This document shows, piece by piece, positions 35,787 to 52,511 of a stretch of DNA of 52,894 bases. Below the pieces are notes generated by a model that was given only the letters and a program-made list of their open reading frames with translations, made no database searches and had not been told where the DNA came from. Origin of the DNA: a virus (taxonomy: Duplodnaviria; Caudoviricetes); the IMG/VR virus record IMGVR_UViG_3300049780_000032, positions 1-52,894 of that record; one strand, 5' to 3'. Each line of letters opens with the position of its first letter. Position 1 is the stretch's first letter. A program made the translations under genes and the position numbers.

Positions 35787-35950
35787 TACGCAAACATACG
35801 CGTACATACGCACATGTCAATGGGTTGCTGCGCATGGATGCGTAGGGTTCTGCTTGACCGCTGGTCCTTACTGGCGGGCGATCTAAACGGCAACCGTGAT
35901 TGTCGGGACCACCGACTGTCAGGTATGGTGCGCGTACATGCGCAAAGGTT
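35787..35950. repeat. 10-bp phased repeats T(A/G)CGC..CA in the switch region
   Basis: TACGCAAACA TACGCGTACA TACGCACATG at 35787-35816; inverted copy at 35829-35844; TGCGCGTACA TGCGCA at 35929. Confidence 0.75.
35793..35820 (-). promoter_or_regulatory. Early lytic promoter, probably leaderless
   Basis: TTGACA-16 nt-TATGTT, then 7 nt to the xis ATG. Confidence 0.65.
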
Positions 35951-37046: not shown

Positions 37047-38525
37047 ATGGCTAGACGCAAGAGTCGGCGCCAGCACGGCGAGGGATCGATCTACCAGCGG
37101 AAAAAGGACGGCCGATGGGTGTGCGAACTCCACCTCGGATACCGTCCTGACGGAAAGCCCGATCGGCGCTATCTGTACGGCGACACCTCAGATGAGGTGA
37201 TCGAGAAGCGCCGCAAATTCTGGCAAGCGCAGGATGACGGGTTCACGCCGGCGAAGGGCCGAGGCCGCACCGTGGGGGAGTGGCTGACCCACTGGCTGTA
37301 CAACATCGTCAAGGCACAGGTCCGCGAGTCCACCTGGCACAAGTCGTATCGCCCCAAGGTGGAGAACTATCTGATCCCGGGGCTCAATCGGATCCTGCTG
37401 AAGGAACTCGACGAGGACCTCGTCGAGAAGTTGTATGCCCGCCTCAAGACCGACGGCTTAGCGCCAGCGACGATCCTGCAAATCCACGCAATTCTCTCGC
37501 GATCTCTGAAGATCGCGGCGAAGCGCAAGCTGATCCCGCGGAACCCGTGCTCCTTCGTGGCGCCGGCGCGCGGAGACCGCGCCGAGATCGTGCCGCCAGA
37601 GCGAGATGAGGCCGCGGCGATCCTGCAGGCGGTGGCCACCCGCTGGAACGGGGCACGATGGGCGCTCGCCCTGAGCGTTGGTCCTCGCCAAGGAGAGGCT
37701 CTCGGCCTCACCTGGCCGATGCTGGACCTGTCTGACCTCGACCACGCGACGATCCGGATCGCGTGGGAGATCGCGCGGGTGCCATGGCAGCACGGCTGCG
37801 AGGACCCGAAGAAGTGCGGCGAGCGTCTCCACCGGCGCCCGTGCCCGCCCGACCCTGCCGACTGCCCGAAGGTGCGCCCGACCGGACGCCGCCACGTCTG
37901 TAGCCGGCCGTGCCCGCCGCGGTGCACCGAGCATCAGGCCGGCCAGTGCCCGACTTGGTGCCCGGACGACTGCGTGAAGCATGCGTCGAGCTGCAAACAG
38001 CGGCTCGGCGGCGGCTTGGTGTTGACGGAGCCAAAGAGCGCGAAGTCGAAGAGGACCGCCGCACTGCCGCGCCGGATGGCGGAGCTGCTGCTCGCACACC
38101 GGACATGGCAGGAGGCGCAGCGGATCGGTAACCCGGCGTGGGTGGGCTGGGGGCACGACAGCCAGACCTGCGATCGGCGGCCGCGCGCCCGCGAGGCCGT
38201 TTGCCCGAAGTGCCGCAAGCCGACGAAGCGGGACGCGCTGGTGTTCGCTCAGCCGAACGGGACGCCGATCGACGGGCGGCGCGACTGGCAGGAGTGGACG
38301 GACCTGCTCGCGGAGCTCGGGTTGCCGCACTATCGCCCGCATGACAGCCGCCATTTCGCCGCGACGACGGCGCTGGAGGAAGACGTGGACGTGGTGGTGG
38401 TGCAGGAGATGCTGGGTCACGCGACCGCCGCGTTCACTCAGTCGACGTATCAGCACGTCAGACCCGCGTTGCAGCGGCAGGCCGCAGATAGGATCGGCGG
38501 CGCGTTGTGGGGGGCCGACACGTGA
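37047..38525 (+). CDS. int: Tyrosine integrase of the prophage
   Basis: GEGSIYQR arm domain, GPRQGE (R), PKS (K), HDSRH, LGH, TYQH. Confidence 0.95.
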   Translation: MARRKSRRQHGEGSIYQRKKDGRWVCELHLGYRPDGKPDRRYLYGDTSDEVIEKRRKFWQAQDDGFTPAKGRGRTVGEWLTHWLYNIVKAQVRESTWHKSYRPKVENYLIPGLNRILLKELDEDLVEKLYARLKTDGLAPATILQIHAILSRSLKIAAKRKLIPRNPCSFVAPARGDRAEIVPPERDEAAAILQAVATRWNGARWALALSVGPRQGEALGLTWPMLDLSDLDHATIRIAWEIARVPWQHGCEDPKKCGERLHRRPCPPDPADCPKVRPTGRRHVCSRPCPPRCTEHQAGQCPTWCPDDCVKHASSCKQRLGGGLVLTEPKSAKSKRTAALPRRMAELLLAHRTWQEAQRIGNPAWVGWGHDSQTCDRRPRAREAVCPKCRKPTKRDALVFAQPNGTPIDGRRDWQEWTDLLAELGLPHYRPHDSRHFAATTALEEDVDVVVVQEMLGHATAAFTQSTYQHVRPALQRQAADRIGGALWGADT

Positions 38526-38901: not shown

Positions 38902-40467
38902 TCAGCTCCTCAGCGAGATGAGCTTCCCGGGTTCGACCTGGTCTTCCTTGCCGAACAGCAGAGCGGCGGTCTTCTCGGCCGCCGCTGTGGCCACCTGCGG
39001 GTAGACCGAGGTGTAGGTATCGGCGGTGAAGGCGCTGGAGGTGTGGCCCAGCGTTTCCTGCACCACCTTCATCTCCACCCCGGCCGCCAGCATCAGCGAG
39101 GCCGCGCCATGGCGGAGGTCATGGAGCCGGATGGGAGGCAGGCCGGCCAGGTAGGCGAGCCAGAGAAACTGGTCGGAGACGTGCTGCGGGTGCAGGCGGC
39201 TGCCGTCCGGTTGGGTGAAGACGAACTCGGTGTCGGTCCAGGCTTCCCCCATGGCCAGTCGCTCCTGAAGTTGCTGCTGGCGATGGGCGCGCAGCACCTG
39301 GGCAGTGTCGCTGTCCAGGGCGATGGTCCGCACCGAGGCGTCAGTCTTCGGTGTGCCTTCGTGGACTTCCCAGGCCAGCTGTACCAACTGCCAGTTGACG
39401 GTCAGGGTGTGGCCGTCGAGGTCGACTTCCTTCCAGCGCAGCCCGCAGGCCTCGCCCCGGCGCAGCCCGCGCAGCGCGATCAACTGATACAGGGCGAAGA
39501 GGCGATGCCGTCGTGCCTCTTCGAGGAACAGGCGGGTGTGCACGGGCGTCCACACCATCACCGGGGAGGGGCGTGGCACGCTGGTGTAGGCGTCGATCGG
39601 ATCGACCCGCCGTCCACCCCGGCGCTGCTTCTCGGCCTGCCGGTATTGACGGAAGGCCTCCTGCCAGGCGCAGACCCGGTCATTCGTCCACACCAGCGGC
39701 CTGGGCCGGGTCTTGGCCGGCATCTCCAGCACGGCGGCGGGGTTGAAGTCGATGAGCCGGTCCTGGCGCATGGCCATGTTCAAGGCATGTCGCAGGGTGG
39801 CGCGGATGCTGTGCATGGTGGTAACGCTGATCGGCCGCCGGTATTTGACGCTGGCCCGCACTTGCGGGTCGGGGTCGGTGCGGCGTTCGGCGATGGTGTC
39901 GTTGAACTCCTCGATCTGCTCGAACATCAACGCGATGTCGCTGACCTTGAGCTGATCCAACCTGAAGCGCCCCAGATACGGGGTCAGGTAGAGGCGGATG
40001 TGACCCTCGTAGGAGCGGCGGGTTGTTTCCTCGATCCTGCGCTTGCGGTTGAGGAACTCGGCCAGCCACTGTTCGACGGTGATCTCCTGGGTGAGGTGCT
40101 GCCCGGTCTTGATCTTGCGGCGGATGGTTTCCGCGTTGGGGAGGGTGTCGGTCTCATCCAGGGTGCGTTTGATCAGGTCGGCGATCTGGGTGCGGGTGGC
40201 GGGCTCGCGCGGGTCGGCCAGCGCGAGCAGGTCGCGCACGTGACCGAGTTCGTCTCTGGCGGCGTCCTGGGTGGCGAAGCCGCCGCGGCGCAGCGGTCCG
40301 CGCCGTTTGCCGTCGGGTTCGGGTGGGAGTTCGATCTGGTAGTTCCAGATGCCGTGCCGGTAGCTCCACCCGCCGTCGGCGCGGCGCAGCTTGGGGCACT
40401 TCTGGCCCAGTGCCTTGCCGTCGTCTCCTCGGCAGGAACAGCGTTTGAAGGTGCGTCCTTCGGCCAT
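38902..40467 (-). CDS. int: Second tyrosine integrase (actinomycete integrative-element type)
   Basis: MAEGRTFKRCSCR..CPKL N-terminus; GLRRGE, PKT, HDLRH, LGH, DTY. Confidence 0.95.
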   Translation of the reverse strand: MAEGRTFKRCSCRGDDGKALGQKCPKLRRADGGWSYRHGIWNYQIELPPEPDGKRRGPLRRGGFATQDAARDELGHVRDLLALADPREPATRTQIADLIKRTLDETDTLPNAETIRRKIKTGQHLTQEITVEQWLAEFLNRKRRIEETTRRSYEGHIRLYLTPYLGRFRLDQLKVSDIALMFEQIEEFNDTIAERRTDPDPQVRASVKYRRPISVTTMHSIRATLRHALNMAMRQDRLIDFNPAAVLEMPAKTRPRPLVWTNDRVCAWQEAFRQYRQAEKQRRGGRRVDPIDAYTSVPRPSPVMVWTPVHTRLFLEEARRHRLFALYQLIALRGLRRGEACGLRWKEVDLDGHTLTVNWQLVQLAWEVHEGTPKTDASVRTIALDSDTAQVLRAHRQQQLQERLAMGEAWTDTEFVFTQPDGSRLHPQHVSDQFLWLAYLAGLPPIRLHDLRHGAASLMLAAGVEMKVVQETLGHTSSAFTADTYTSVYPQVATAAAEKTAALLFGKEDQVEPGKLISLRS

Positions 40468-41420
40468 CGTGGTGCCTGTCCTGTTCTCTTCGGTGCTGAT
40501 GGGTGGGGCTGGTGTGGTGGAGATCGGGGTGGTGCTCGGCGCAGGGGTGCTGCGTCCGGTCCTGGAGTAGCCGGTGAAGGGCTGCCCTGCTCGAGGGGCG
40601 CGCTTTGAGAAGGTCCTGTTTCGAGTGCTCATCCCGCGATATCCCGTTCAGCCATGGCCCCGGTGATCGCTGGATACGGGTGCACGGCGGTCCTGCCGCG
40701 CGTGCCGCCGTTCTGTACGGTGTGGAGCGCCGGGCCGTCGTGTTCCCGTCCGGCGCGGCCGATGCGGTGGTGTGATCGGGCGAGCACGCCCGTGGTCGTC
40801 ACCCCGCCGCATCGATGGCCGTGCCGGACAGGGGGTATCGACGCCCACCTGGATGGCGATGGTCAAGGCCGAATCCGACGGTCAACGCCGGGCGGGTGCG
40901 ACAGCGGTCTCTGTACGGCGTCGCCGCCAGCTCAGCGCTCATCGCTTCGAGACGCCACAGAGCAAGGACGGCTCTCGCCGCGGGAACGCACCAAGGCGTG
41001 CGAGCGAGATGAGCAGCCATCCCAGGGCGTAGGCCTGGAATGACCGCGCAGTCGCTGCCGGCCCAAAGAGTCCCTTCGACCGGCAGATCTGAGCCGTCGG
41101 TGGTGCTGAACGGTATGGTCCGCGGTTCGCGTGGTACGGCGGATGATGTGATTCGCTGGTGTTGGTTGTCGTGCGGTGAAAGCCATGTCGGTGTGGCCCG
41201 ATCACCTGGGCCACCTGATCCCTGTCACCTTTATAAATACCTGCGATCAAACCCGGATTCGGACAGCAGGCGAGGCAAAGATTCGACCATGATCACCCGA
41301 CAAATCCTCCGCATCCGGGGCATACTCCCCGTCCTCGACCGGCGGTAGACAGCCTCAACCCGGCGAGGAAACAACCATGGCGGCCTGCAAGATGCGAGCA
41401 ACGATGCCCGGGAATTTAGC

Positions 41421-41851: not shown

Positions 41852-42667
41852 TCAGGGGCTGACTGCCGCGGAGTCGAGGCGTCGGTGCAGCATCGAAATC
41901 AGAGTCAGGACGTCGAGGGCATCCGACCGTGAGGTGGCCCAGAGAACTCTAGGTGCGTGCGCACTGGGGTTGCGGAAGGTGCTGAACAGGCCCTTCATCA
42001 GCATCACCAGACCGTTTTGCTCGGAGCGCTCCCATTCGGTGGTGAGGGTGTTGAAGGCGATACGGGGGCCCTGCCCGATAGAGCATGTCTTGTCGACCAG
42101 GCCGGAGCCATCACCGTGCTCCCCGGTCAGGGCCCGTAGCTTGTCAGCCACGCTCTTGGACGCCTCCAGCACCGCATGAAAGTAGTTGCGGTCCGTCAAC
42201 TCAGCCCGACAAAAGCGCAAGACATCAGGGTGCACATCACGCCGGCTGAGCTCCGCGCGCAGGTCGTCGGCTCGTTGCTGAGCCTCTGACACGGTAGTGG
42301 CCGCTGCGGTGCGTGCGATCTTGCCGTCCTCGCGTACCTTGTAACCGCTGTAGAGGAGGCTTTCATTCACCGCAGTACGCGTGCGCTCGTAGTCGGCTGT
42401 GGACTGGAAGCGGACCGGCCTCATGACCTCCCCTACCAGCCGAAGCATGGCGTGCCCATCCCCCTGATGGTTCTGTCGCTGAGCGACCGCGTCGAACAGG
42501 CGCTTCCATTTCGTTTGCCGCTCGCTGCCAGCGGGTTCGGTGACCTTGAGCGGGACGATCAGGTTAGGGATCTGCGGCCCTGTGACCGCATCGGCCAGCG
42601 CCTTGCAGATCTGCTCAACCGAGGCAGCGGGAAAGGGCGCGGGGAGAGGAGGCGCTGCTTGTGCCAT
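41852..42667 (-). CDS. TIGR02391 family protein
   Basis: 'TKWKRLF', 'VHPDVLRFCRAEL..NYFHAVLEA.KSVADKLR', 'FRNP.AH'. Confidence 0.85.
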   Translation of the reverse strand: MAQAAPPLPAPFPAASVEQICKALADAVTGPQIPNLIVPLKVTEPAGSERQTKWKRLFDAVAQRQNHQGDGHAMLRLVGEVMRPVRFQSTADYERTRTAVNESLLYSGYKVREDGKIARTAAATTVSEAQQRADDLRAELSRRDVHPDVLRFCRAELTDRNYFHAVLEASKSVADKLRALTGEHGDGSGLVDKTCSIGQGPRIAFNTLTTEWERSEQNGLVMLMKGLFSTFRNPSAHAPRVLWATSRSDALDVLTLISMLHRRLDSAAVSP

Positions 42668-42786: not shown

Positions 42787-43824
42787 TTAATGGGGTTCCG
42801 GAGAGGAGATTTCAAGAATGTCATAAATGGGGTCTCCCCATGTAGCCCAATCACGCAGTCGTGGCGTATCAATGAGATGAATGTTCTGACTTCTGGCAAA
42901 CGCACGGGCTGGCTGGGAAAAGTCTCCACTTGCCATCATGACGACTATGTTCGCCTTGTGTATCGGGCGCGCAGTTCCGTTGAGTCGCTGAAGTGCTTCG
43001 GAACCGATCCGTCTACGGCCTCGAGTATGTTTGCACTGCATAACGAGCCGGCGGCCGTCTGGAGTCGTCGCAATCACGTCCGCGCCAAGGTCTCCAGACC
43101 CACCCGCACGGCGCACAATGGCCAACCCGTCGCGTCTCAAGAGCCAGGAACCAAGTATTTCAAAGTTCCGCGGATCGAAGTTATTGATCGTATCGAGGGT
43201 ATAGCTTTTTTCGCTTGAGGCGAATTCCTTGCGCCGGCAATCAAGTTTGTTTAGCGCGGCGATACACTCTTCGGCGTCGTGGCATATGCGCGTAATGCGT
43301 TCCCTGCGAGGCTCGATATCGACCCAATTTCCATGCTGTCTTCGTTTGGCGATACGCGCTCGTTTCCTGCGCTGTATAGAGAGGATGGCGAGTAGCCAAA
43401 CGTGCCCTTGAGGCGCTCGAAATTGCTTCTGGCTCTCTGAATGTGCAACGCAAGGTGCTGAGATTCCGTTTCGAGTAGCGCTCTTTTTCTTCGCAGGATT
43501 GCCTCATATTCGCCCCGCGTGAACTCATATTCTCCGGAGGGGATTTTATTTTATGCGCTCCCAGGTCGATCGAACTTCCGTGGATATCTCTTCACGGCAC
43601 TTTTCTGCTGTCGTTGCGATTGCTCTTGCGATAATTCCCTCGCGGGTCCAGAGAAGGGCTGCTAGAAAGTCGCTCTCGTCGGCCTTGCCGATATAGTCAC
43701 CCATGGCCTGGCGGAGTAGCTTGTCTGCAAATTTCGGAGGAGTAATTCGGGCTTCTCGGTCAATGATCACCGCGAAATGGTGCACCACTCCATAAAGATG
43801 GATGAAACGCCCAAACATGATCAT
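42787..43824 (-). pseudogene. Frameshifted Mrr-like restriction endonuclease
   Basis: C-terminal 'FE..GSWLLRRDG....GGSGDLGADVIA...VMQCK...FSQPA..FA..I.LID'; upstream AT-rich coding split over successive frames. Confidence 0.7.
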
Positions 43825-43858
43825 ATCGCATGCAAGCTAGGGCGCGGCTGATGGGGAC

Positions 43859-44190
43859 GTGCAGGAGACGGGCGAACTCCTGGCTGAGGTCGGCATTCCG
43901 ACCGTGCTCACCAGAATCCGGATGCCGCGCGTGAACTCGATCATGGAGCGGCGGGTGAGGTCCTGTCGCCGCGCACTCCTCGGTCACTGCCTGCTGTGGA
44001 ACGAATACCATCTGCGTCATGCCCTGCGTGAGTACGAATGGTTGTCACCTACAGCCAGCACCGTGCTCACTAGGCCCTGGACCAAATGGCCCCGCTACGC
44101 GTTATGCCGGATCCGATCACAGATCTAGAGCGGGTCATCGTCCTGCGCGTACGCTGAAGATACCGGCTCGGCGGAGTTCTCCGTGAGTGT
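43859..44190 (+). pseudogene. Integrase-core transposase remnant
   Basis: 'GI..V.T..RMPRVNSIMERRVRSCRR.LL...L.WNE.HLRHALREYE'; truncated and frameshifted. Confidence 0.75.
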
Positions 44191-44292
44191 TCACATACGG
44201 CTTGAGTTGTATGGATGTGGTTTGGCAGGCGTGGAGCCGATGGTGGGCATGGATAAGTATGGCCAGCATCCGGCGAGTCTGAGAGGTGCACA

Positions 44293-44895
44293 GTGGAGCT
44301 GCGAAAATTGCGCTTCTGGCCGGGCTCGCTCGTGGTGCTTGAGGGCTTGGACCGCAGTGGCAAGTCTACTCAGCGCCATTGGCTCTCAACTCTCGATTGG
44401 GCCGCCCCCGCTCCGTTGTTTACGCACATGCCATCCGGCTTGGCTCGTGTGACGGAAAGTATCTATACCCTTACTGAAGATGTCGATATCAAGTCGCCAT
44501 TAGCGCGCCAGCTGTTACATCTCGCGTGCCATGCAGAGAACATCGCCGCGATTGCTGAGGCCCGTCACGAGCGAGGCGTGGTGCTCGATCGGTGGTGGTG
44601 GTCCACTGTGGCCTACGGTTGGTACGGCTGCGACCTAGCCAACCTCGGCGTGGATGAGCGCGCGTTCTTTGGAATGATCAACTCAATCTGGGCGCGTCAG
44701 CCAGCGGACTTGGTTTTCCTGTTCACCTCGCCTTTTGAAGGGGATGAGCTAAACCGTGATCAGGTTCGCCGTGGCTACGAGGTTCTCGCGCGCCAGCACG
44801 CCTCCACGACGGTCGAAGTTCCCGCTGCCGATGAGGCGACGACTACGGCCTTCCTCGTTGAGCAGCTGGTCCTTCACAAGCTGGTCAAGATGTAG
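44293..44895 (+). CDS. Thymidylate kinase-like nucleotide kinase
   Basis: VVLEGLDRSGKST P-loop; VVLDRWWWSTVAYG; P.DLVFLF. Confidence 0.88.
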   Translation: MELRKLRFWPGSLVVLEGLDRSGKSTQRHWLSTLDWAAPAPLFTHMPSGLARVTESIYTLTEDVDIKSPLARQLLHLACHAENIAAIAEARHERGVVLDRWWWSTVAYGWYGCDLANLGVDERAFFGMINSIWARQPADLVFLFTSPFEGDELNRDQVRRGYEVLARQHASTTVEVPAADEATTTAFLVEQLVLHKLVKM

Positions 44896-45035
44896 CCGGC
44901 AAAGGCCTACCTTCCCATGGATGACAGGAGATCGCCGCGACGGTGCGTCCCGGAACTCCCTGGGTCGACGTGTGAGTGGCAAGGCACGCGTAGGACAGAA
45001 CCTGAGCCGTTGCTCTTCGCCGTGGTCTTCGTACC

Positions 45036-45914
45036 TCACTCGGTGGGCATGGGGGAAACGACGAGCGTCTGGGTGTTCATGTCAAGATCGATGATGCCGC
45101 CGCCAGCTTGGCGCAACTGCCGCCAGGCGGTGTAGCCGGTCAGGATGGCCTTTTCCCAGTCGGCGGCGCGGTGGACGGAGACCTCGAGGTGTCCCACCAT
45201 GGAGCCGATGGTGTCGAGTAGGTCATTGTCGATGTGGATCGTGCCGTCCAGGTAGTTGTGGCGGCTGGCGTAGGAGAACACCAAGGCGGAGATGCCTTCC
45301 TCGATGGCGATGGCCCGGCCGCCGTCTTCCGCTTCGTCGACGGTGGAGTTGGAACGGCGCTTGCGGCGTAGCAAGGAGCGCATCACCGGGGACCATCCAA
45401 GGACCGCTGCGTAGGACAGGTGGAAGATGTCGTGCATCCTGTAGTCGTCGCTGACGTGCGAGGCGTCGGTGAGCGGATCTCCCACGGCGGCACCGTCCCA
45501 GGTGAGGATCGATTTGATGATGCCGTTCACGTCGGCAAGGCGAAGGACGAAGCGGGCGGTGCGTGGAAGTCGTTCTTCCTGCGGATAGCCATCGTCGAAA
45601 GGAATCTGATCGGCGGTGGTGGGGCGCCAGCGATCAGCGATTTTGTGCAGGTTGGCTGCAGCGACATCGGCTAGATCGAGGCCGGCCTGCTCAGCGAGTA
45701 CGGCCAGGTACCACAGGGCGTCACCGAGTTCCTCGCGCAGCTGTGCCTTGAACGTCGGATTGGCCCGCCCATCACGCAACTGCTTCTTGTAGGCCGTGGC
45801 GACAGCCCCGACCTCGCCGATGAGCCCGAGGAGAGGAACAGCAACGGGGTCCGTGCCGGCTTCCGCCTCCTGAAGGGTCTTGCAGGCGGCTCGTTGGTAG
45901 TCGCTCAGGTCCAC
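45036..45914 (-). CDS. MazG-family nucleotide pyrophosphohydrolase with MazG C-terminal domain
   Basis: YQ, LGLIGEVG, EELGDALWYLA, ANLHK; C-terminal 'GDPLTD...DDYR.HD.FH...LGWSPV.R...EDGGRA..IEEG'. Confidence 0.9.
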   Translation of the reverse strand: MDLSDYQRAACKTLQEAEAGTDPVAVPLLGLIGEVGAVATAYKKQLRDGRANPTFKAQLREELGDALWYLAVLAEQAGLDLADVAAANLHKIADRWRPTTADQIPFDDGYPQEERLPRTARFVLRLADVNGIIKSILTWDGAAVGDPLTDASHVSDDYRMHDIFHLSYAAVLGWSPVMRSLLRRKRRSNSTVDEAEDGGRAIAIEEGISALVFSYASRHNYLDGTIHIDNDLLDTIGSMVGHLEVSVHRAADWEKAILTGYTAWRQLRQAGGGIIDLDMNTQTLVVSPMPTE

Positions 45915-45965
45915 ACTCACTCCTCGTGTCGGGTTCCCCAGCAGAACTTGTAGGATATCCAGGAG

Positions 45966-46004
45966 TGTGGCATTCTCGGACAGTAAATTCAGGAAAACGC
46001 CACA
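45966..46004. promoter_or_regulatory. Inverted repeat, candidate operator between divergent mazG and ACP-XRE operon
   Basis: TGTGGCATTCTC-N15-GAAAACGCCACA (10/12 match). Confidence 0.5.
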
Positions 46005-46018
46005 GCCGGGGAGGGCGG

Positions 46019-46309
46019 ATGTCCGCAAGCATGACCCGGGAGGACGTGGTGGGCCTCACCATCGGCCTACTGGCTGCGGAGCAAGGCCGGGACCCGGCCG
46101 AGTTGCGCGCAGAACTGGAGGGGCAGGGCTCCGACCTGCCTATCGACTCACAGCTGATCGCCGAGGTTCTGGCCCGAGTTGAGAATCACTTCGGGGTTCG
46201 CATCCCAGCCGACAACGAAGCCGCCCGCTCTTTGCGGTCGGTGCAGACGTTCGCCGAGACCATTCTCGTCGCAGCCGCCATGGCCGTCGCAAGTCAAGAG
46301 GTGTCATGA
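46019..46309 (+). CDS. Acyl carrier protein-like (phosphopantetheine site)
   Basis: 96 aa, acidic; 'LPIDSQLIAEVLARVENHFGVRIP...LRSVQTFAETI' ACP pattern. Confidence 0.8.
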   Translation: MSASMTREDVVGLTIGLLAAEQGRDPAELRAELEGQGSDLPIDSQLIAEVLARVENHFGVRIPADNEAARSLRSVQTFAETILVAAAMAVASQEVS

Positions 46310-46728
46310 CCACCCCAGAAGAACACATTGCCCGCGATCCTGACTGGAGCCCGAGTTGGGAGCTGATCGGAGAGAGACTGCGTACCGCCCGCGAATATTT
46401 GAACTTCTCTCAGCAGCATGTCGCGGACAGGACCGGAATCCCGCGGACGGCCATCAGCGACATCGAGCGTGGGGCACGTAAGGTCGACAGCCTGGAGTTG
46501 CGCAAGCTGGCGCGGTTCTACAAGCGCCCCATCGGCTACTTCCTTGATGAGGACACCGAGGCCGCCATCGCTGATCACGCAACGGCCATGCTCGCTCGGG
46601 CGCTGAGTCCTCTTAGCGACGGCGACCGGGAGCAGGTGGTCAAGTTCGCGCAGTTCTTGCAGTCCGCATACGCCGCAGAGGCCGAGGAGGAGAAGCAGCA
46701 GCGGGTGTCCGGGGAGAGAGATCGGTGA
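46306..46728 (+). CDS. XRE-family transcriptional regulator
   Basis: 'IGERLRTARE..NFSQQHVA..TGIPRTAISDIERG.RKV..LEL..LA'. Confidence 0.93.
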   Translation: MTTPEEHIARDPDWSPSWELIGERLRTAREYLNFSQQHVADRTGIPRTAISDIERGARKVDSLELRKLARFYKRPIGYFLDEDTEAAIADHATAMLARALSPLSDGDREQVVKFAQFLQSAYAAEAEEEKQQRVSGERDR

Positions 46729-47672
46729 CCTGGGGGCTGGCGCACGGGCGCGCGATGATCCGGGCCGCTCAGGCCCACCGCGACCTGGATCTAGATCAGA
46801 GCCGCTACATCGACGTATACGAGGCCTTGCACCGTGCGGAGCTGATGGTGGTATGCGCCCCGATGTCGGCCCTGTTCGGTGCTTACCTGCCGGCCGCCGT
46901 AGGCCCGGGAGGCAGGAAGGCGGGCGTGCTGCTGAACAGCCATCGAAGCGTTATTGATCAGCGCCACAGCGCTGCTCACGAACTTGGCCACCATGTGTTC
47001 GGTCACGGCGAGTGTGTATCTGAGGGCTCGCAAGTGTTCGAGGACAGCGATCCGGGAGCGTGGCCGGTGAGGGAGAAGGAGGCGGAAGCTTTCGCCTCCT
47101 GGTTCTTGATGCCACGCGTAGCGACCCGCAAGGTGATCGCCGCACTGGGCGTCGAGGTCATTACCCGGCCCGAGGAGGTGTATCAAGTTGCGCTGCACCT
47201 GGGTACTTCCTATCGAGGCACGCTGCGCCATCTCGTCAGCCTGAAGCTCATCTCCTCGGCCGACGCGAGCCGTTGGGCTCGTTTGCCCAGAGGGAAGGTC
47301 CGAGCACGAGCCGTCGGTCGGGCTGCCTCCTCGCCCGTCAACGACATCTGGATTCTAGGCCCGGCCGCACACGGCGCTACGTTGCACGTACGCCCCGGCG
47401 ACCGACTGGTGGTCGGCTTGTCATCAGCCACGGATTCTGCTGCGGAGCCGCTCACCCCGCCAGCGGGGGTACAACGTGCTATCTCCCCGAGCGGGGACGA
47501 AGCAGGCATGCTGGGATTTGAGCTAGATCTCGATGATCCCCTGGAGTTCGACATCACCGACCAGTTCTCTGCTGGAGGTCCGTTGCGGCTTACGGCGCCC
47601 GAAAGGGGCGGATGGGAGGTGAAGGTGGCTTCCGTCCGGGTTCCTCGGGTTGGCTTCAACGAGCCGGACTGA
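46725..47672 (+). CDS. ImmA/IrrE-family zinc metallopeptidase
   Basis: R.S.AHELGH, E.EA..FA..FLMP, HTH-like LGTSY; extra C-terminal beta domain. Confidence 0.9.
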   Translation: MTWGLAHGRAMIRAAQAHRDLDLDQSRYIDVYEALHRAELMVVCAPMSALFGAYLPAAVGPGGRKAGVLLNSHRSVIDQRHSAAHELGHHVFGHGECVSEGSQVFEDSDPGAWPVREKEAEAFASWFLMPRVATRKVIAALGVEVITRPEEVYQVALHLGTSYRGTLRHLVSLKLISSADASRWARLPRGKVRARAVGRAASSPVNDIWILGPAAHGATLHVRPGDRLVVGLSSATDSAAEPLTPPAGVQRAISPSGDEAGMLGFELDLDDPLEFDITDQFSAGGPLRLTAPERGGWEVKVASVRVPRVGFNEPD

Positions 47673-47873
47673 TGTGGATGGGAAGGGTCGGTTACTGATC
47701 TAGCGAGATCGGTCAGCTCGTTAACGGTGATTCGCCCGTGTCGGACGGGCGACCGGACTGAACGTCCCGGGACGTGTGCCCGGCCTACACGCCTGCGCTC
47801 GCAGGGTTCGTGGCTAGATTCCAGCCCAAGCTGCGACAACATGATCCGTCTACCGCGAGAAACGGACATCGCG

Positions 47874-48737
47874 ATGTCAGTCCTGTACATCCAAGCGCCG
47901 AACGTCTCCGAAGCATGGCTGCAGGCCGTGCGTGCGCTGGGAGAGCGGCCAGATCCTCGCGCTCTACACATGATCGTGTCAATTGACGCCCCGGTCGCTG
48001 AGGACAGCCGCATTCGAGCTGCCGTCGACAGGCTCCTCGACGATCTCGGGCAGCCGGGTGTCGACACCGTGGCCAACACGATCTTCCCCGCGGCCCTTGC
48101 AGCCACCAGCTCAAATCACGAGGAGCTGGTCGAACGCTACCTGCGTTACCTCCCGCGGCTACGCGGATTCAAGGGCAACCAGTTCGGTACCTATTTCGCC
48201 AGGCTGGTCGCATATCCCGGGATCAAGGGAGCAGTTGACCAGCTAGCCGCCGTGGTGGATCGGCTTCAAAAGGGCGGTCGCGCACGCTTCACCCGCTACG
48301 AAGCGCTCATCGACCAACCCGAAGTAGACGGTGAACCTGATACGGAGGCGGCGGCTTCGCAGGAGCCGAACGAGTCGGTCAACGGCGACTCGCCTCCGCC
48401 CGATGGCGGGGCAACTGCTCCGATCTACGTGCCGGGCAAGGACCGAACACCTGGCCACTTCCCCTGCCTGAGTCACTGCTCATTCCAACTGGATGCCGAC
48501 GCCCGCGTGCATCTACTGGCCTACTACCGTAGCCAGTCGATGGTGGAGAGGGCCTACGGAAATTACCTGGGACTGGGCCGGCTACTGCAGTACGTAGCCA
48601 GTCAGGCAGGACTGCGAACGGGGCAGCTCACTGTCGTGGCCGGACAGGCGCAGATCGAGATGGCGCGCCGCCAAGTGCGCTTGCTGACATCGCAGCCCGA
48701 GATCCTCCCGGGCTTCGCTGTATCCAAGTCTGCCTGA
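47874..48737 (+). CDS. Thymidylate synthase-like protein (candidate dUMP hydroxymethylase)
   Basis: TVANTIFP, DQL, FPCLSHCSFQ (catalytic Cys), YYRSQ, AYGNY. Confidence 0.8.
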   Translation: MSVLYIQAPNVSEAWLQAVRALGERPDPRALHMIVSIDAPVAEDSRIRAAVDRLLDDLGQPGVDTVANTIFPAALAATSSNHEELVERYLRYLPRLRGFKGNQFGTYFARLVAYPGIKGAVDQLAAVVDRLQKGGRARFTRYEALIDQPEVDGEPDTEAAASQEPNESVNGDSPPPDGGATAPIYVPGKDRTPGHFPCLSHCSFQLDADARVHLLAYYRSQSMVERAYGNYLGLGRLLQYVASQAGLRTGQLTVVAGQAQIEMARRQVRLLTSQPEILPGFAVSKSA

Positions 48738-48804
48738 AGACGGACATGTCTGAGACGTTCCTGGCAGACCTCTGAAGCTAAAGTCATCTCATCCGCTCAA
48801 AGCA

Positions 48805-49830
48805 CTACGCAGGGGGCAACTCGTCGCTATTGATCTTCCACTTCGGCGGAAACCATGCCGTCAAGGGAGCAGAGTCTGCCCGGTAACCCTGCTTGATCCG
48901 GGTACGACCGCTGACACCCTGCACGTGGGGATGAGCCACCCGTGAGTATTTGTCGACCTCGCAGAAGAGGTTCTGACAGTCGATCAACTGCAAACGCCTA
49001 CCGGACAAGCCAGAGAACTCCAGGCCGAGACGCTCGAACTGGACCTCCTGCGTGTCAGCCATGTAGCGGATCACCTCCGCCTCAACCCCCTGAGCGTCAG
49101 GGCCGAAGCATTTGCGGATGCCATCACGAGCTCCAGGACCCGCCACGACGAAGTCCATCTCGCTGAAACTCAGCGCCGACGTGTAGTTCAGGTCGATCAG
49201 GAACTGGAACGCAAGGAAGTCCCCCAACCCGGGATATCCCTTCAAGACCTCGAAAGCCTCTGCCATGGTGGTCGCAGAAGCGATCTTGGCTGGCGCATCG
49301 GCAGTCATCATCAATTCCAACAACCGTAGGTGGTTACGGTGCTTGCGCTGCTCACCAAGCGGCGGCTGCGGGATCACGTAGGCGGGGGAGTACAGACGCT
49401 GTCCTTCAGCGAAAGCACCGCTCAGCACGGCTTCGTAGGCCTGCCACGAGTAGTTCACCCAACTGATCTCGCCGAGCATGGCTGACAGCAGATGCCAGGT
49501 GGAGATTCGGTTGAACAGCTTAAACAACATGACCCGGAAGAACACCTCAGACCACTCGGACGACCCCCGGTAGATGACCTGGGTGATGAGGTGCTGGCTC
49601 ACACGGTCACTAGCCCGGTAGCAGTTGGTGAAGCGGTACCGCGCCAGGATCGGGTCGGCCGTCCATGGACCGACCTGCCCGGCGAGCTTCCTCTCGTACA
49701 CCCGCTGCCGCTCTGCGGCGAAACGCCAATAGGTGTCGAACACCGTCGTGGGGCTCAGCCGCCGGCCCGCGATGACCACCTCTGACGTCCGGTCGAGGTC
49801 AGCCCTCTGTCCGATCGTTGTCGTCGTCAC
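48805..49830 (-). CDS. 5-hmdU DNA kinase-like protein (aGPT-Pplase clade 1)
   Basis: 'YWRFAAERQ....GPWT.DPIL..YRFTN.YR..DRVSQ', 'FKLFN', 'G.G.FLA.Q..IDL.Y', 'GPGARDG', 'QNLFCE.DKY'. Confidence 0.88.
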   Translation of the reverse strand: MTTTTIGQRADLDRTSEVVIAGRRLSPTTVFDTYWRFAAERQRVYERKLAGQVGPWTADPILARYRFTNCYRASDRVSQHLITQVIYRGSSEWSEVFFRVMLFKLFNRISTWHLLSAMLGEISWVNYSWQAYEAVLSGAFAEGQRLYSPAYVIPQPPLGEQRKHRNHLRLLELMMTADAPAKIASATTMAEAFEVLKGYPGLGDFLAFQFLIDLNYTSALSFSEMDFVVAGPGARDGIRKCFGPDAQGVEAEVIRYMADTQEVQFERLGLEFSGLSGRRLQLIDCQNLFCEVDKYSRVAHPHVQGVSGRTRIKQGYRADSAPLTAWFPPKWKINSDELPPA

Positions 49831-49860
49831 TCTAGAATTATATATCTATTGCATATCTGT
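49831..49860 (-). promoter_or_regulatory. AT-rich divergent promoter; leaderless for the DNA kinase gene
   Basis: Perfect TATAAT (49842-49837) 6 nt before GTG start. Confidence 0.6.
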
Positions 49861-49885
49861 CGCCTGCGAATGCGAGAGAAGAGGC

Positions 49886-50176
49886 ATGGAGCTCCTCCGG
49901 GACTCGCCCAAACGCACCACGTCAGTGCAGTGGCCGGACGCTGTTGACGCCCGGCTTGAGATACTGGCGGCCCTGGCAACTGCGGCAGGAGAGCAGGTCT
50001 CAAGGGCGCAATTGCTGGCAGCCCTGGTCGCCATGGCACCGCTGGACAAGGAAGCACTGAGCGTGGCCGTGCATTCCTACAGGCAGCAGTTGCACGAGGA
50101 GTTCGCCACTGCCACTGCTCAAGTTGAAGATCTTCCCCGTGTAAGACGTTCTGGGCGAAAGCGCCGTAACACTTGA
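49886..50176 (+). CDS. Small putative ribbon-helix-helix DNA-binding protein
   Basis: GAGG RBS; 'RTTSVQWPDAVDARLE.L.......SRAQLLAALV' strand-helix-helix. Confidence 0.6.
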   Translation: MELLRDSPKRTTSVQWPDAVDARLEILAALATAAGEQVSRAQLLAALVAMAPLDKEALSVAVHSYRQQLHEEFATATAQVEDLPRVRRSGRKRRNT

Positions 50177-50305
50177 GCTTGGCGGCTGCGGAGCAAACGA
50201 GCGGGCCGCTGATCTGCGGGCGGAACCTAGGAACGCACCAATCCGGCATGCAAGTCATCGGTGATCGAGGCGCCCTAGATCTTTCCGGACAGCTCCCAGC
50301 TAGGG

Positions 50306-50570: not shown

Positions 50571-52511
50571 TCAGACAGTCAGAAGGCGGAAGATTTCTTC
50601 GAAGCGCTCAAGCGTGGCATCGTCCACCTGCGCGAAGAACGCCCCAAGGTCGGAGGTGAGTTGGTGCGCGGGGCCAGCGTGATCGAACTCTCCCCGAACG
50701 AGGGCAATGCGGCGCAGGATTGGTTCGTTGGTCTGAGGAAGTTCCGCTTCCGTCACGGCGGGGAGACCAGACTGGTTGTAGAGCCACAAATAGTCCTTGG
50801 CCGTGAACAAGTCCTCGATATCGCCGCTGGCGGGTAGACCGTCGAGCTCGCCGATAACCACGATCTTGCTCTGGTCGACGCCTGCTGCCGTGGCGGCCAT
50901 CCGAACCTTCCTGATGACCTTGGTGGCCTCGGCGCCATCTACCAAGGCGCGTACGTCGAGGCGGCGTCCCATCAGGGCCACAAAGGCGGGCATGTTGCCT
51001 ACGCCACCGACCGGGATGATGGACAGGCGAGGATTAAGCCCTGTCCGATTCTGGGCCACCAGATGGGCCGACAAGCGCATCAGGAACACGAAGTCGCTGC
51101 TGCCTTCCACCGCGAGGTGTGGGCCTACGCCCAGGAAGAGGTGCTGGGATACGGAGTAGCCCAGGGCTGCCTCGACGGGCAGAATCGTATTGCGGTCGGC
51201 CGACAGATCGACAGGAGTGATGACCACGCCGAGGTCGGGATTCTCCCGAGTGGCCTGGTCGTGGACGGCGCGCATCGTCTCGTAGCGGCTGGGATCGAGC
51301 ATGTGCTGCGAGTGTGTGGTGTAGAGGACTTGCTGGTGCACTCCCAACTCGTCGATGATGTAGGTAAGGAAGTCACGCTGCGCTTCCCCGTGCAAGCTGG
51401 TCCCCGGCTCGTCTAGGAGGACCACCACCCGATCAGAGGAATCCTGGTATCTGCTGAACGCGGCTAGGAAGGAGAAGAACCACTGGAACCCTGACGAGCG
51501 TGTGGAGAAGTTGGTGTCCACCTCGTGCCGCGCGTCATGAAGCTCGATCTTGAGTATCCTGTGGCGAATCTCGTGACCTTCAGCCGTATGGTCGACAACC
51601 GGCATATCGGTATCAAACCGCACCGACAGGGCGGGATTCTGCTGCCAGTACTTCATCACCTGGGCGGTGAGGTCGGAGCTGGCTGCCTGCAGCTCGGCCT
51701 TCCGGGTGATGTACTCCTCGTCCAAGAAGCTCCCCGGAACCTGTCCCGCCAGGCTGAGCAGGGCCAGCATGGTCTCGTCACCTTTGATCAACGACTTCGA
51801 TTTGGCGCGGTGCGCCAGTTCGGTCAGATCGCACTCGCCCTTGAGTAGCTCGTAGTTGGAGAAGTAGAAGAAGCGAGGGAGCAGCGTGTGCAGCTGTTCC
51901 TGCTGGTCACCGGTGGTTCGCTCGCCCAAGAGCACGGCATACTTCTTCAACATGTTGGGGATCTTCTTGATCGCCGTCGCACGCGCGGTGTGCCCGTCCT
52001 CGCTCAACTGCATGGCCAACTCGCGCGCGGTGCTGGCCAGGGCGGCCGAATTCTCGATCTGTATCAGGGATGCGAGATCGTCTGGATCTGCGCCAACCTC
52101 GTTGCCCAGGGTGCGAACGAGATCGGAAAGCTCACATTCAACTTCGATCACGAGTTCGTTGTCGTAGCTCCGCCATGCCACAACGATCATCCCCGCCGGT
52201 GGTTCAAAGCCCAAGATGCCGGCCACATCGCTGACATCTTGGACCTCCAGAGCGAACCTGCCGACGATGGGTGCGACGGCACCTAGGTCCTCTTTGCGGC
52301 GATCCCTGGCCAGATGTCGACGGGGATACTCCACCGATACGTCGAATTTGTCTGGCCGGTTGGCGGGATTGAGACGATGCAACGCCTGCAAGATCGTCGT
52401 TTTGCCCGACTCGTTCTTGCCGATGAGACTAGTCACCGCCTGGTCGACCACCATGGTCTGGGCGTCGGTGAAGTTACGGAATCGCTGGATCTCGATCGAG
52501 AGGAGGAGCAT
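50571..52511 (-). CDS. OLD-like ATP-dependent nuclease (ABC ATPase + TOPRIM)
   Basis: GKNESGKTT, SSGFQWF signature, LLDEPG, TTHS, VEGSSD, LVDG, DIEDLF. Confidence 0.88.
   Translation of the reverse strand: MLLLSIEIQRFRNFTDAQTMVVDQAVTSLIGKNESGKTTILQALHRLNPANRPDKFDVSVEYPRRHLARDRRKEDLGAVAPIVGRFALEVQDVSDVAGILGFEPPAGMIVVAWRSYDNELVIEVECELSDLVRTLGNEVGADPDDLASLIQIENSAALASTARELAMQLSEDGHTARATAIKKIPNMLKKYAVLLGERTTGDQQEQLHTLLPRFFYFSNYELLKGECDLTELAHRAKSKSLIKGDETMLALLSLAGQVPGSFLDEEYITRKAELQAASSDLTAQVMKYWQQNPALSVRFDTDMPVVDHTAEGHEIRHRILKIELHDARHEVDTNFSTRSSGFQWFFSFLAAFSRYQDSSDRVVVLLDEPGTSLHGEAQRDFLTYIIDELGVHQQVLYTTHSQHMLDPSRYETMRAVHDQATRENPDLGVVITPVDLSADRNTILPVEAALGYSVSQHLFLGVGPHLAVEGSSDFVFLMRLSAHLVAQNRTGLNPRLSIIPVGGVGNMPAFVALMGRRLDVRALVDGAEATKVIRKVRMAATAAGVDQSKIVVIGELDGLPASGDIEDLFTAKDYLWLYNQSGLPAVTEAELPQTNEPILRRIALVRGEFDHAGPAHQLTSDLGAFFAQVDDATLERFEEIFRLLTV

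Follow-up and report, generated by a model that had tools for sequence, protein, structure and literature searches.

An invariant-serine carrier protein heads a mobile cassette of actinomycetes with a putative inducible role in pyrimidine modification or defence

Analysis of a 52,894-nucleotide (nt) DNA record from a virus of the Caudoviricetes (IMG/VR record IMGVR_UViG_3300049780_000032; hereafter the window, meaning the whole stretch that was analysed) showed that a gene of the acyl carrier protein (ACP) family lies at the head of a coupled operon, followed by genes for an XRE-family repressor, an ImmA/IrrE-type peptidase and an enzyme with a thymidylate synthase (TS)-like fold. Together with genes for a MazG::MazG_C fusion, a PF18723 (HMUDK_hel) protein and a small winged helix-turn-helix (wHTH) protein, these form a cassette that recurs in actinomycetes and outside of which the ACP was not found. 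Our tentative explanation, to which we give slightly less than an even chance, is that of an inducible pyrimidine-C5 modification or defence cassette in which the phosphopantetheinylated carrier (holo-ACP) would supply a thiol or a tethered cargo. Feature coordinates are collected in Table 1.

Sequence comparison and a predicted structure both identify the 96-amino-acid (aa) product as a genuine carrier protein with the expected fold. Its score against Pfam PP-binding (PF00550) was marginal (21.0 bits, cut-off 20.8), and a six-frame family search of the 52.9-kb record gave this gene as the one PP-binding match (20.9 bits). Database searches returned 18 homologues of 92–127 aa (E-values 3.7e-13 to 2.8e-48), the top one being the window's own protein; those from Nonomuraea and Streptomyces carry ACP as their source name. 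Because of these homologues and of the same cassette position in 61 loci, the gene is, on sequence grounds, far more than a chance open reading frame (ORF). The family profile matched the mycobacterial carrier AcpM in the PDB (2.1e-6), with LPIDS aligned to the DIDS attachment motif. The AlphaFold2 (AF2) model (predicted local distance difference test score, pLDDT, 76.5) had helices at residues 7–22, 26–36, 44–58, 66–70 and 75–95, the helix order of carrier proteins; the second long helix (44–58) begins at Ser44. All 50 top rows of a Foldseek search with this model were ACP, peptidyl carrier protein or DltC chains, but at E-values of 0.16 or worse. With the VIA aligner all 50 rows were again carrier proteins, the best being holo-ACP with a Z of 8.1 (root-mean-square deviation 1.8 Å over 72 residues), a Z near 8 not being decisive by itself for helical proteins. 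Asp43-Ser44 was invariant in the alignment of 18/18 database homologues. Across 56 sequences that included metagenome homologues, down to about 40% identity, the attachment serine was kept throughout, preceded by Asp in 51, Asn in three and Ser in two, with Glu at position +5 in 53. The assignment of the gene as an ACP in an earlier note, made on the window sequence alone, thus stands: lack of an ACP fold and an unconserved serine, either of which would speak against it, were both looked for, and an ACP-like fold and a conserved serine were found.

The distribution of the cassette was mapped in genomes and in metagenomes. A profile scan with one genome per species gave 19 loci. They belong to Nonomuraea, Streptomyces, Kitasatospora, Yinghuangia and Embleya, the last with four copies close to the ends of replicons. 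By tblastn with the window proteins, 18 of the 19 kept the order MazG (−), ACP, XRE, ImmA and TS-like (+), PF18723 (−) and wHTH (+), a homologue of the small wHTH protein being present in 18 as well; the 19th (L020) is a cassette remnant in a genome that lacks PF18723. A metagenome scan with the TS-like profile gave 80 loci, which were mapped with hidden Markov models (HMMs) together with two viral contigs (L124, L125). At least 1.9 kb of sequence was available upstream of the TS-like gene in 41 of these metagenome and viral loci; 38 had an XRE gene, and 36 of the 38 also an HMM-detected ACP gene, the other two being the viral contigs. Sequence reading and Pfam placed an ACP gene in L080. In all, the ACP cassette was present in 61 loci, the window included, some of them near-duplicates. 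The PF18723 family itself was found in 9 of 401 sampled actinomycete genomes and, in an order-level survey around genome G177, in one of 39, namely G177 itself.

Genes beside the cassette varied between loci. Within the 4-kb flanks of the 61 loci, the largest cluster was a helicase (nine loci, four of them copies in one genome), the other recurrent genes were integrases and transposases, and no ligase, acyltransferase or other conserved loading enzyme recurred. Since the flanking genes are not conserved, the cassette is a self-contained mobile unit of about 5.5 kb. In Embleya sp. MST-111070 two linear replicons carry it within their terminal inverted repeats, at a distance of about 4.7 kb from each of the four ends (L007–L010), with a Mutator-family transposase beside it. 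The earlier note had linked the ACP to the TS-like, PF18723 and kinase genes; this link is borne out, since the ACP occurred only in this cassette, complete in 18 of the 19 genome loci, and was found in 36 of the 38 XRE-bearing metagenome and viral loci. The same note had called for a survey of the effectors that accompany ACP–XRE–ImmA trios elsewhere; these were the TS-like, MazG::MazG_C, PF18723 and wHTH genes and, sometimes, a thymidylate kinase (Tmk)-like gene.

Within the window, coordinates and DNA agreed on the couplings noticed earlier. The XRE start codon ATG (46306–46308) shares TG with the ACP stop codon TGA (46307–46309), giving ATGA, and the ImmA start codon GTG (46725–46727) overlaps the XRE stop codon (46726–46728) as GTGA. 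Judged by eye, a Shine-Dalgarno-like purine-rich stretch precedes each of the ACP, XRE and ImmA starts. The overlap of ACP stop and XRE start recurred in at least 7 of 21 other mapped ACP-bearing loci. The ORF of the divergent MazG gene extends to 46028, but its homology begins at about residue 29, and tblastn matches start at query residues 29–36 in most loci; homologues of the TS-like enzyme begin at the MSVLY position. The absence of a 4'-phosphopantetheinyl transferase (PPTase) or ligase gene from the window was confirmed, as the six-frame family search of the record returned neither an ACPS/PPTase nor an AMP-binding match. Pfam scans of 45 further ORFs contained no genes of the polyketide synthase (PKS) or non-ribosomal peptide synthetase type, the ketosynthase and condensation families having had no separate search. 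No RNA runs were listed that covered positions 44200–50200; two DNA runs from soil metagenomes contain this stretch and may be where the DNA came from. At the far end of the cassette, the wHTH and PF18723 genes, taken from their first possible starts, overlap divergently by 98 nt (49733–49830); at some loci, similarity at the protein level extends into this overlap in both frames.

Variant cassettes that carry a PPTase bear on the state of the ACP. Two loci in PF18723-bearing genomes (L040, L041) and one metagenome locus (L120) had the genes in the order ACP, TS-like, a 117–131-aa gene, XRE, ImmA, MazG::MazG_C, with or without the Tmk-like gene, and PF18723; a short contig (L117) showed only the TS-like gene and the gene after it. 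This 117–131-aa gene encodes an AcpS-type PPTase (Pfam ACPS, 3.9e-14 in L040, 8e-16 in L041, 1e-15 in L120 and 4.4e-8 in L117) and directly follows the TS-like gene in all four. For the ACP-like proteins of L040 and L041, the hhalign match to the family profile (8.5e-5 and 6.9e-7, respectively) covered the complete domain and kept the serine in register. In L040 and L041 the ACP stop codon overlaps the TS-like start by 4 nt, and in L040, L041 and L120 the TS-like and PPTase genes separate the ACP from XRE and ImmA. Because the variant order couples the ACP to the TS-like gene, the ACP accompanies the enzymes no less than the repressor, and its tie to the TS-like enzyme is at least as close as that to the repressor. 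The description in the earlier note of an orphan ACP inside a regulatory switch was therefore misframed: in the common order the ACP heads one coupled operon, ACP-XRE-ImmA-TS-like, in the variant order it is coupled to the TS-like gene and lies two genes away from XRE and ImmA, and in L096 ACP and XRE are kept without ImmA.

As an AcpS-type PPTase sits in the variant cassettes, the ACP appears designed to receive a phosphopantetheine arm, which would be attached by PPTases of the host or, in hosts with few of these, by the AcpS-type enzyme of the cassette. Host genomes of PPTase-less cassettes had 4, 5 and 4 PPTase matches, compared with two each in the hosts of PPTase-bearing cassettes, one of which was the cassette's own; this is a contrast of three genomes with two, and the hosts of L040 and L041 have small genomes. 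Taken together with the PPTase of the variants, the counts suggest that the cassette needs holo-ACP, and it may carry a PPTase for hosts that might have no suitable enzyme to offer.

The TS-like protein is probably an active pyrimidine-C5 enzyme, as judged from its residues and its model. It matched the NCBIfam archaeal-type TS partially (4.6e-15), and Foldseek with its AF2 model (pLDDT 82.5) returned the CMP hydroxymethylase MilA (3.5e-10) as well as phage dCMP hydroxylase and ThyA/thymidylate synthases. The Cys of the FPCL motif, Y218, G229 and N230 (the Asn of the YGN motif) were invariant in 43 sequences. A complex prediction for the ACP with the TS-like protein, in which both were given as alignments and no controls were run, gave ipSAE values of 0.00 and 0.01, which speak neither for nor against binding. 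In the PF18723 protein, HMUDK_hel spans nearly the whole chain, and Pfam gave no other domain even at E-values up to 10, and no P-loop. The name kinase, under which this protein entered the earlier note, is consequently doubtful, since the protein has no P-loop domain of its own. A separate Tmk-like P-loop kinase gene accompanied the cassette in only one of the 19 genome loci by tblastn (L002) and in L040, and in L125 it is fused to PF18723. No member of the aGPT-Pplase/amino acid:DNA transferase (AADT) family was found by Pfam in any cassette protein of the window.

Control of the cassette would rest with XRE and ImmA, which resemble a CapH/CapP-type (ImmR/ImmA, DdrO/IrrE) switch; by analogy with these systems, XRE would be a repressor that ImmA cleaves in response to an inducing signal. 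The HExxH motif (H85, E86, H89) and E117 of ImmA were invariant in 30/30 relatives. The C-terminal part of about 130 aa (residues 189–315) of the window protein had no Pfam match even at E-values up to 10; five of the 30 relatives carry a chagasin-like Inhibitor_I42 domain there, and none a GAF domain. In L041 (1238–3363), L107 (322–1604) and L120 (9682–11420) such an ImmA::Inhibitor_I42 protein (up to 6.3e-17) is directly followed by a gene for a papain-like Peptidase_C1, which could form a second proteolytic layer restrained by the ImmA protein itself. A candidate cysteine switch, a Cys eight residues after HExxH in the window ImmA, was rejected, as by eye this Cys is missing from the L041, L124 and L125 peptidases.

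A candidate operator was found upstream of the ACP gene. In 17 of the 19 loci the palindrome TGTCGG-N4-CCGAC(A) lies about 80 nt before the ACP start, and few off-site copies of TGTCGG-N4-CCGAC were found in the 362 kb examined. The window and L002, its nearest relative, are the two exceptions; they have in its place a GGATATCC palindrome, at 45953–45960 in the window, where an imperfect inverted repeat (45966–45977 and 45993–46004; 12-nt arms, 83% complementary) also lies just upstream of the ACP start. A scan of positions 45850–46100 for the sigma-70 consensus, which may not suit a high-GC actinomycete, gave no match. One copy of TGTCGG-N4-CCGAC occurs at window position 35901, in the presumed control region of the prophage described below, and could reflect chance or repressor cross-talk.

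On the explanation that we favour, XRE would repress the divergent promoters through the palindrome just upstream of the ACP gene, and ImmA would cleave XRE on a stress, damage or infection signal, so that all cassette genes are turned on together. The ACP would not belong to this switch and would work with the pyrimidine-C5 enzymes. The TS-fold enzyme, MazG::MazG_C and the PF18723 protein, with or without the kinase, would rework the thymidine pathway, which holo-ACP would join through its thiol: the phosphopantetheine thiol, or a host-loaded cargo, would attack a C5 exocyclic-methylene or 5-phosphomethyl electrophile arising from the TS-fold and PF18723/kinase pathway. The product, expected only after induction, would be a thio-linked or ACP-delivered thymidine derivative, or an ACP–nucleotide adduct. 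Because the cassette has no loading enzyme, the free thiol is the simplest reactant. According to the available parts of the source, 5-phosphomethyl-dU in DNA gives rise to an exocyclic methylene, which amines, hydroxyls and the thiol of beta-mercaptoethanol capture (Lee et al., 2021; PMC8989533). The earlier idea that the ACP donates a thiol or an acyl group to activated 5-hydroxymethyl-deoxyuridine (hmdU) is thus still the most economical chemical reading and gains indirect support from the AcpS-type PPTase of the four variants, while the chemistry itself, like the phosphopantetheinylation, the repression and cleavage steps and an outcome in defence or in self-modification, is what we infer. 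In a more specific form, which we consider fairly improbable, holo-ACP would be a sacrificial nucleophile, its thiol being alkylated, once the XRE/ImmA switch has fired, by a C5-exocyclic-methylene pyrimidine, either at the nucleotide level on the TS-fold enzyme or at hmdU-derived sites in replicating DNA. If so, ACP–nucleotide or ACP–DNA thioether adducts would poison phage replication or packaging or, alternatively, would mark the start of a sulfur-linked thymidine hypermodification not yet seen in nature; in either case a carrier protein would for the first time be found to take part in the chemistry of nucleic-acid bases.

Several observations weigh against this explanation. The modification of the ACP, its cargo and the nucleotide product are steps that we infer, and the PP-binding score of the window ACP was marginal. 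No PPTase was found within 10 kb in the window or in 27 other genome loci, and the difference in host PPTase counts comes from few genomes. As no locus shows a conserved loading enzyme, a thioester cargo would lack a dedicated source. The PF18723 protein lacks a P-loop and most loci lack the Tmk-like kinase, which leaves even the 5-phosphomethyl intermediate hypothetical in this case. In the common order, and in L124 and L125, the ACP or ACP-like ORF is coupled to XRE and not to an enzyme, which fits a regulatory partner equally well. The small ORFs of these two viral contigs had no Pfam match and no hhalign match to the ACP profile, and a phmmer search of the PDB with the L125 ORF gave no meaningful match. 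Finally, four metagenome loci (L061, L064, L067, L068) carry a TS-like gene about 48% identical to that of the window and have no HMM match to the other cassette genes, so the TS-like family is not strictly dependent on the ACP; the contig names of the four form one numbering series, and L064 has only about 430 nt upstream of its TS-like gene. A 79-aa ORF upstream of the L061 TS-like gene was considered as an ACP and rejected, as it had no Pfam match and does not read as ACP-like. Also beside the TS-like gene in L061 lie genes of the histone-deacetylase family and of the CBS/BON and GNAT-CoA-ligase types.

The ACP might instead be a partner of the switch (a co-repressor, an anti-repressor or a modulator of ImmA, possibly reporting the state of the phosphopantetheine arm) and carry nothing to nucleotides or DNA. 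The overlap of ACP stop and XRE start in the window and in other loci fits such a role, as do the coupling of a small ORF to XRE in L124 and their adjacency in L125. ACP, XRE and TS-like genes always co-occur, so phyletic patterns cannot separate them, and among the structures matched by the fold ACPs also appear as plain protein subunits (AcpM with MmpL5 or Emb; mitochondrial ACP in complex I). We nevertheless regard a switch partner as unlikely, given that in L040, L041 and L120 the ACP stands apart from XRE and ImmA, in the first two coupled to the TS-like gene, and that L096 has ACP and XRE without ImmA; moreover, the available parts of two sources describe CapH/CapP as a two-protein module and mention no third component (bioRxiv 10.1101/2022.04.27.489752; bioRxiv 10.64898/2026.05.16.725639). 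A structural or allosteric subunit of the TS-like, MazG::MazG_C or PF18723 protein, with the arm as an anchor as in ACP–LYR and AcpM–transporter complexes, would agree with the fixed place of the ACP in the cassette, with the PPTase needed in some hosts, with the lack of a loading enzyme and with precedents among the fold matches; an anchor role leaves the lone TS-like genes of the L061 group unexplained and the interaction is only proposed, and we judge it to have a rather small chance. Still less can be said for a decoy or sensor of phage proteins that target the host fatty-acid ACP and so trigger the cassette, which we consider very improbable. Only the defence-island setting and an acidic surface like that of an ACP (pI 4.4) speak for it. 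One would not expect a decoy to have a dedicated PPTase or to be coupled to the TS-like gene, and no phage partner is known; the closest sequence matches being weak (AcpM by profile), the ACP is not a close mimic of a housekeeping ACP. The earlier note had offered this decoy or sensor role and an allosteric role on the protease, and no finding speaks for either.

Whether the cassette would serve defence or the modification of a mobile element's own DNA is a separate matter, in which the role of the ACP would be the same. Phage-borne versions bear on it directly. In L124 (5733–9573) an ACP-like–XRE–ImmA–TS-like–MazG_C version without PF18723 lies between phage terminase/DUF1643 and portal genes, and L125 (8779–11543) has the Tmk-like::PF18723 fusion followed by a radical-SAM gene and adjoins a 706-aa ORF without a Pfam match, which was taken as a phage structural gene from its sequence alone. 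Both contigs have a 93–97-aa ORF directly upstream of XRE, overlapping the XRE start by 4 nt in L124; these ORFs are ACP-like only by their language-model neighbours (0.92–0.94) and by position, and a scan of viral contigs with the ACP profile gave no match. Because of these versions, we count self-modification on induction, with temperate phages or integrative elements hypermodifying their own DNA, as a possibility, if on the unlikely side. The cassette has integrases beside it in the window and in L020 and L040, and the available parts of PMC8989533 describe characterised relatives of the enzymes that make hypermodified thymidine in phage DNA. Against it, most of the 61 loci have no phage genes in their clustered 4-kb flanks, the window cassette lies beyond both integrases and among defence genes, and Pfam found no aGPT-Pplase-type transferase among the cassette proteins of the window; in addition, PF18723/TS cassettes with TIR and Nmad2 genes protect E. 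coli, as reported in the parts of PMC13092281 available. A defence role is favoured because the window cassette sits in an island of lower G+C content with a PD-Lambda-3_B homologue, an Mrr fragment and an OLD/AriA/GajA-like ATPase (Table 1), and because L120 adjoins type I restriction-modification genes.

In the window, about the first 35 kb are a prophage. It encodes an 872-aa N6/N4 methylase and a C5 methylase in addition to tail tube, capsid, prohead protease, portal, terminase, DnaB, DUF1643, a beta-clamp and ERF/YqaJ recombinases. After it come two tyrosine integrase genes, the second of which may belong to the cassette-bearing island, and the cassette lies beyond both, where G+C is 0.59–0.64, compared with about 0.70. 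The interval 43200–44290 (G+C about 0.59) contains only short overlapping ORFs and is probably a decayed insertion sequence; one of them (43859–44128), judged by eye, resembles the C-terminal part of a DDE transposase.

Table 1. Features of the cassette and its surroundings in the window.
Feature	Position	Strand	Details
Tyrosine integrase, after the prophage	37047-38525	+	
Tyrosine integrase, after the prophage	38902-40632	-	
PD-Lambda-3_B homologue	41852-42667	-	3.8e-72; also Hypoth_Ymh
Mrr-type nuclease fragment (truncated)	42787-43140	-	
Thymidylate-kinase-like P-loop kinase, optional cassette member	44293-44895	+	Thymidylate_kin 3.1e-7; NCBIfam dTMP kinase 1.5e-10; PADLOC PDC-M51B 6.3e-9
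MazG pyrophosphohydrolase::MazG_C fusion, divergent from the ACP operon	45036-45944	-	MazG_C 2.4e-75; MazG 6.8e-8
Putative divergent promoter/operator region, gap between MazG and ACP	45945-46018	.	Palindrome and imperfect inverted repeat
Acyl-carrier-protein-family gene	46019-46309	+	96 aa, pI 4.4; attachment serine Ser44 in LPIDSQL
XRE-family helix-turn-helix repressor, CapH-like	46306-46728	+	140 aa; HTH_3 3.5e-11; PADLOC capH 5.5e-15
ImmA/IrrE (M78) zinc peptidase, CapP-like	46725-47672	+	315 aa; Peptidase_M78 1.1e-9; PADLOC capP 5.5e-12
Thymidylate-synthase-fold (TS-like) enzyme	47874-48737	+	Likely start ATG 47874; ORF open from 47727
PF18723 (HMUDK_hel) gene, convergent to the ACP operon	48805-49830	-	HMUDK_hel 7.3e-116, residues 28-304
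Small winged-helix (Trans_reg_C-like) protein, divergent from the PF18723 gene	49733-50176	+	Trans_reg_C 3.2e-5, below cut-off
OLD/AriA/GajA-like ABC ATPase	50571-52511	-	646 aa

The switch genes have counterparts in CapH/CapP from CBASS (anti-phage signalling that is based on cyclic oligonucleotides) and other immune operons, in ImmR/ImmA of ICEBs1 and in DdrO/IrrE of Deinococcus. An XRE repressor followed by an M78 HExxH peptidase at the head of the controlled operon is common to all, and a palindrome in the promoter region is a further likeness to CapH/CapP. As far as the available parts of the two sources go, CapH binds its own promoter and CapP cleaves CapH when activated by single-stranded DNA (bioRxiv 10.1101/2022.04.27.489752; bioRxiv 10.64898/2026.05.16.725639). 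CapP is described there with a C-terminal GAF domain and single-stranded DNA binding, whereas the cassette ImmA has no GAF domain by Pfam and Inhibitor_I42 replaces it in the five relatives mentioned. In the present cassette, a carrier-protein gene lies before the repressor gene; the words 'acyl carrier' have no occurrence in the full text of bioRxiv 10.1101/2022.04.27.489752.

For the enzymes, a close comparison is DS-4 ('NTTI', DefensePredictor) of E. coli, which the parts of PMC13092281 available present as a validated anti-phage defence system of TS, kinase, PF18723, TIR and Nmad2 genes. In common with the window cassette, it is a chromosomal cassette in which a TS-family enzyme goes together with a PF18723 protein and a small protein resembling a nucleotide kinase. 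In contrast to the window, where the ORFs scanned contained neither TIR nor Nmad2, DS-4 as described has both of these and lacks MazG::MazG_C, ACP, XRE and ImmA. Closer to DS-4, as so described, than the window cassette are three actinobacterial loci (L039, L042, L043) that combine PF18723 and MazG_C with SLOG, two TIR-domain proteins and Nmad2, and have neither a TS-like gene nor an ACP.

Thymidine hypermodification in the phages M6, PaMx11, ViI, PhiW-14 and SP10 likewise involves, in the available parts of PMC8989533 and PMC5889632, a TS-family enzyme acting at the nucleotide stage, together with proteins whose annotation is that of kinases of 5-hmdU DNA (5-HMUDKs); an activated C5-methyl carbon reacts there with nucleophiles, including a thiol in vitro (PMC8989533). 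The phage pathways use P-loop 5-HMUDKs, an aGPT-Pplase/AADT transferase and free amino acids or polyamines, as far as these sources show, whereas no aGPT-Pplase was detected in the cassette, whose PF18723 protein has no P-loop and whose genes lie under a repressor/peptidase switch in bacterial chromosomes. Neither ACP nor PPTase had an occurrence in these two papers.

Stand-alone carrier proteins of type II fatty-acid synthase and PKS systems, AcpM and DltC share with the cassette ACP the fold, an acidic helix II and the D-S motif at its start, and AcpS-type PPTases serve them as one neighbours the cassette genes in four loci. The cassette differs from their settings in that no ketosynthase, acyltransferase, adenylating ligase or thioesterase was seen in the window or in recurrent flanks, its partners being nucleotide and DNA enzymes and a switch. 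Full-text literature searches found no text joining ACP and PPTase with anti-phage defence, an earlier mention in Iyer et al. (2013) or Burroughs et al. (2015) being possible, and nothing relevant joining ACP, thymidylate synthase and phage hypermodification. XRE/ImmA switches and PF18723/TS/MazG cassettes are thus of known or predicted kinds, while a conserved holo-ACP among them, sometimes with its own PPTase, is not described in the literature searched.

Carrier proteins are familiar from lipid, polyketide, peptide and cell-wall chemistry, and with DltC there is already a small carrier protein from which a group is passed on to a polymer. We know of no carrier protein in nucleotide or DNA-base modification or in anti-phage immunity. 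An ACP with an invariant serine in this cassette points to an undescribed use of carrier proteins in DNA-base chemistry or anti-phage defence. The cassette is tractable, being compact, widespread in soil actinomycetes and governed by a simple switch, with Ser44 as a single-residue handle. It could reveal which roles the TS-like, MazG_C and PF18723 proteins have in bacteria, whether there is a new thymidine derivative or protein–DNA adduct, and in what way CapH/CapP-type switches are connected to defences based on nucleotides.

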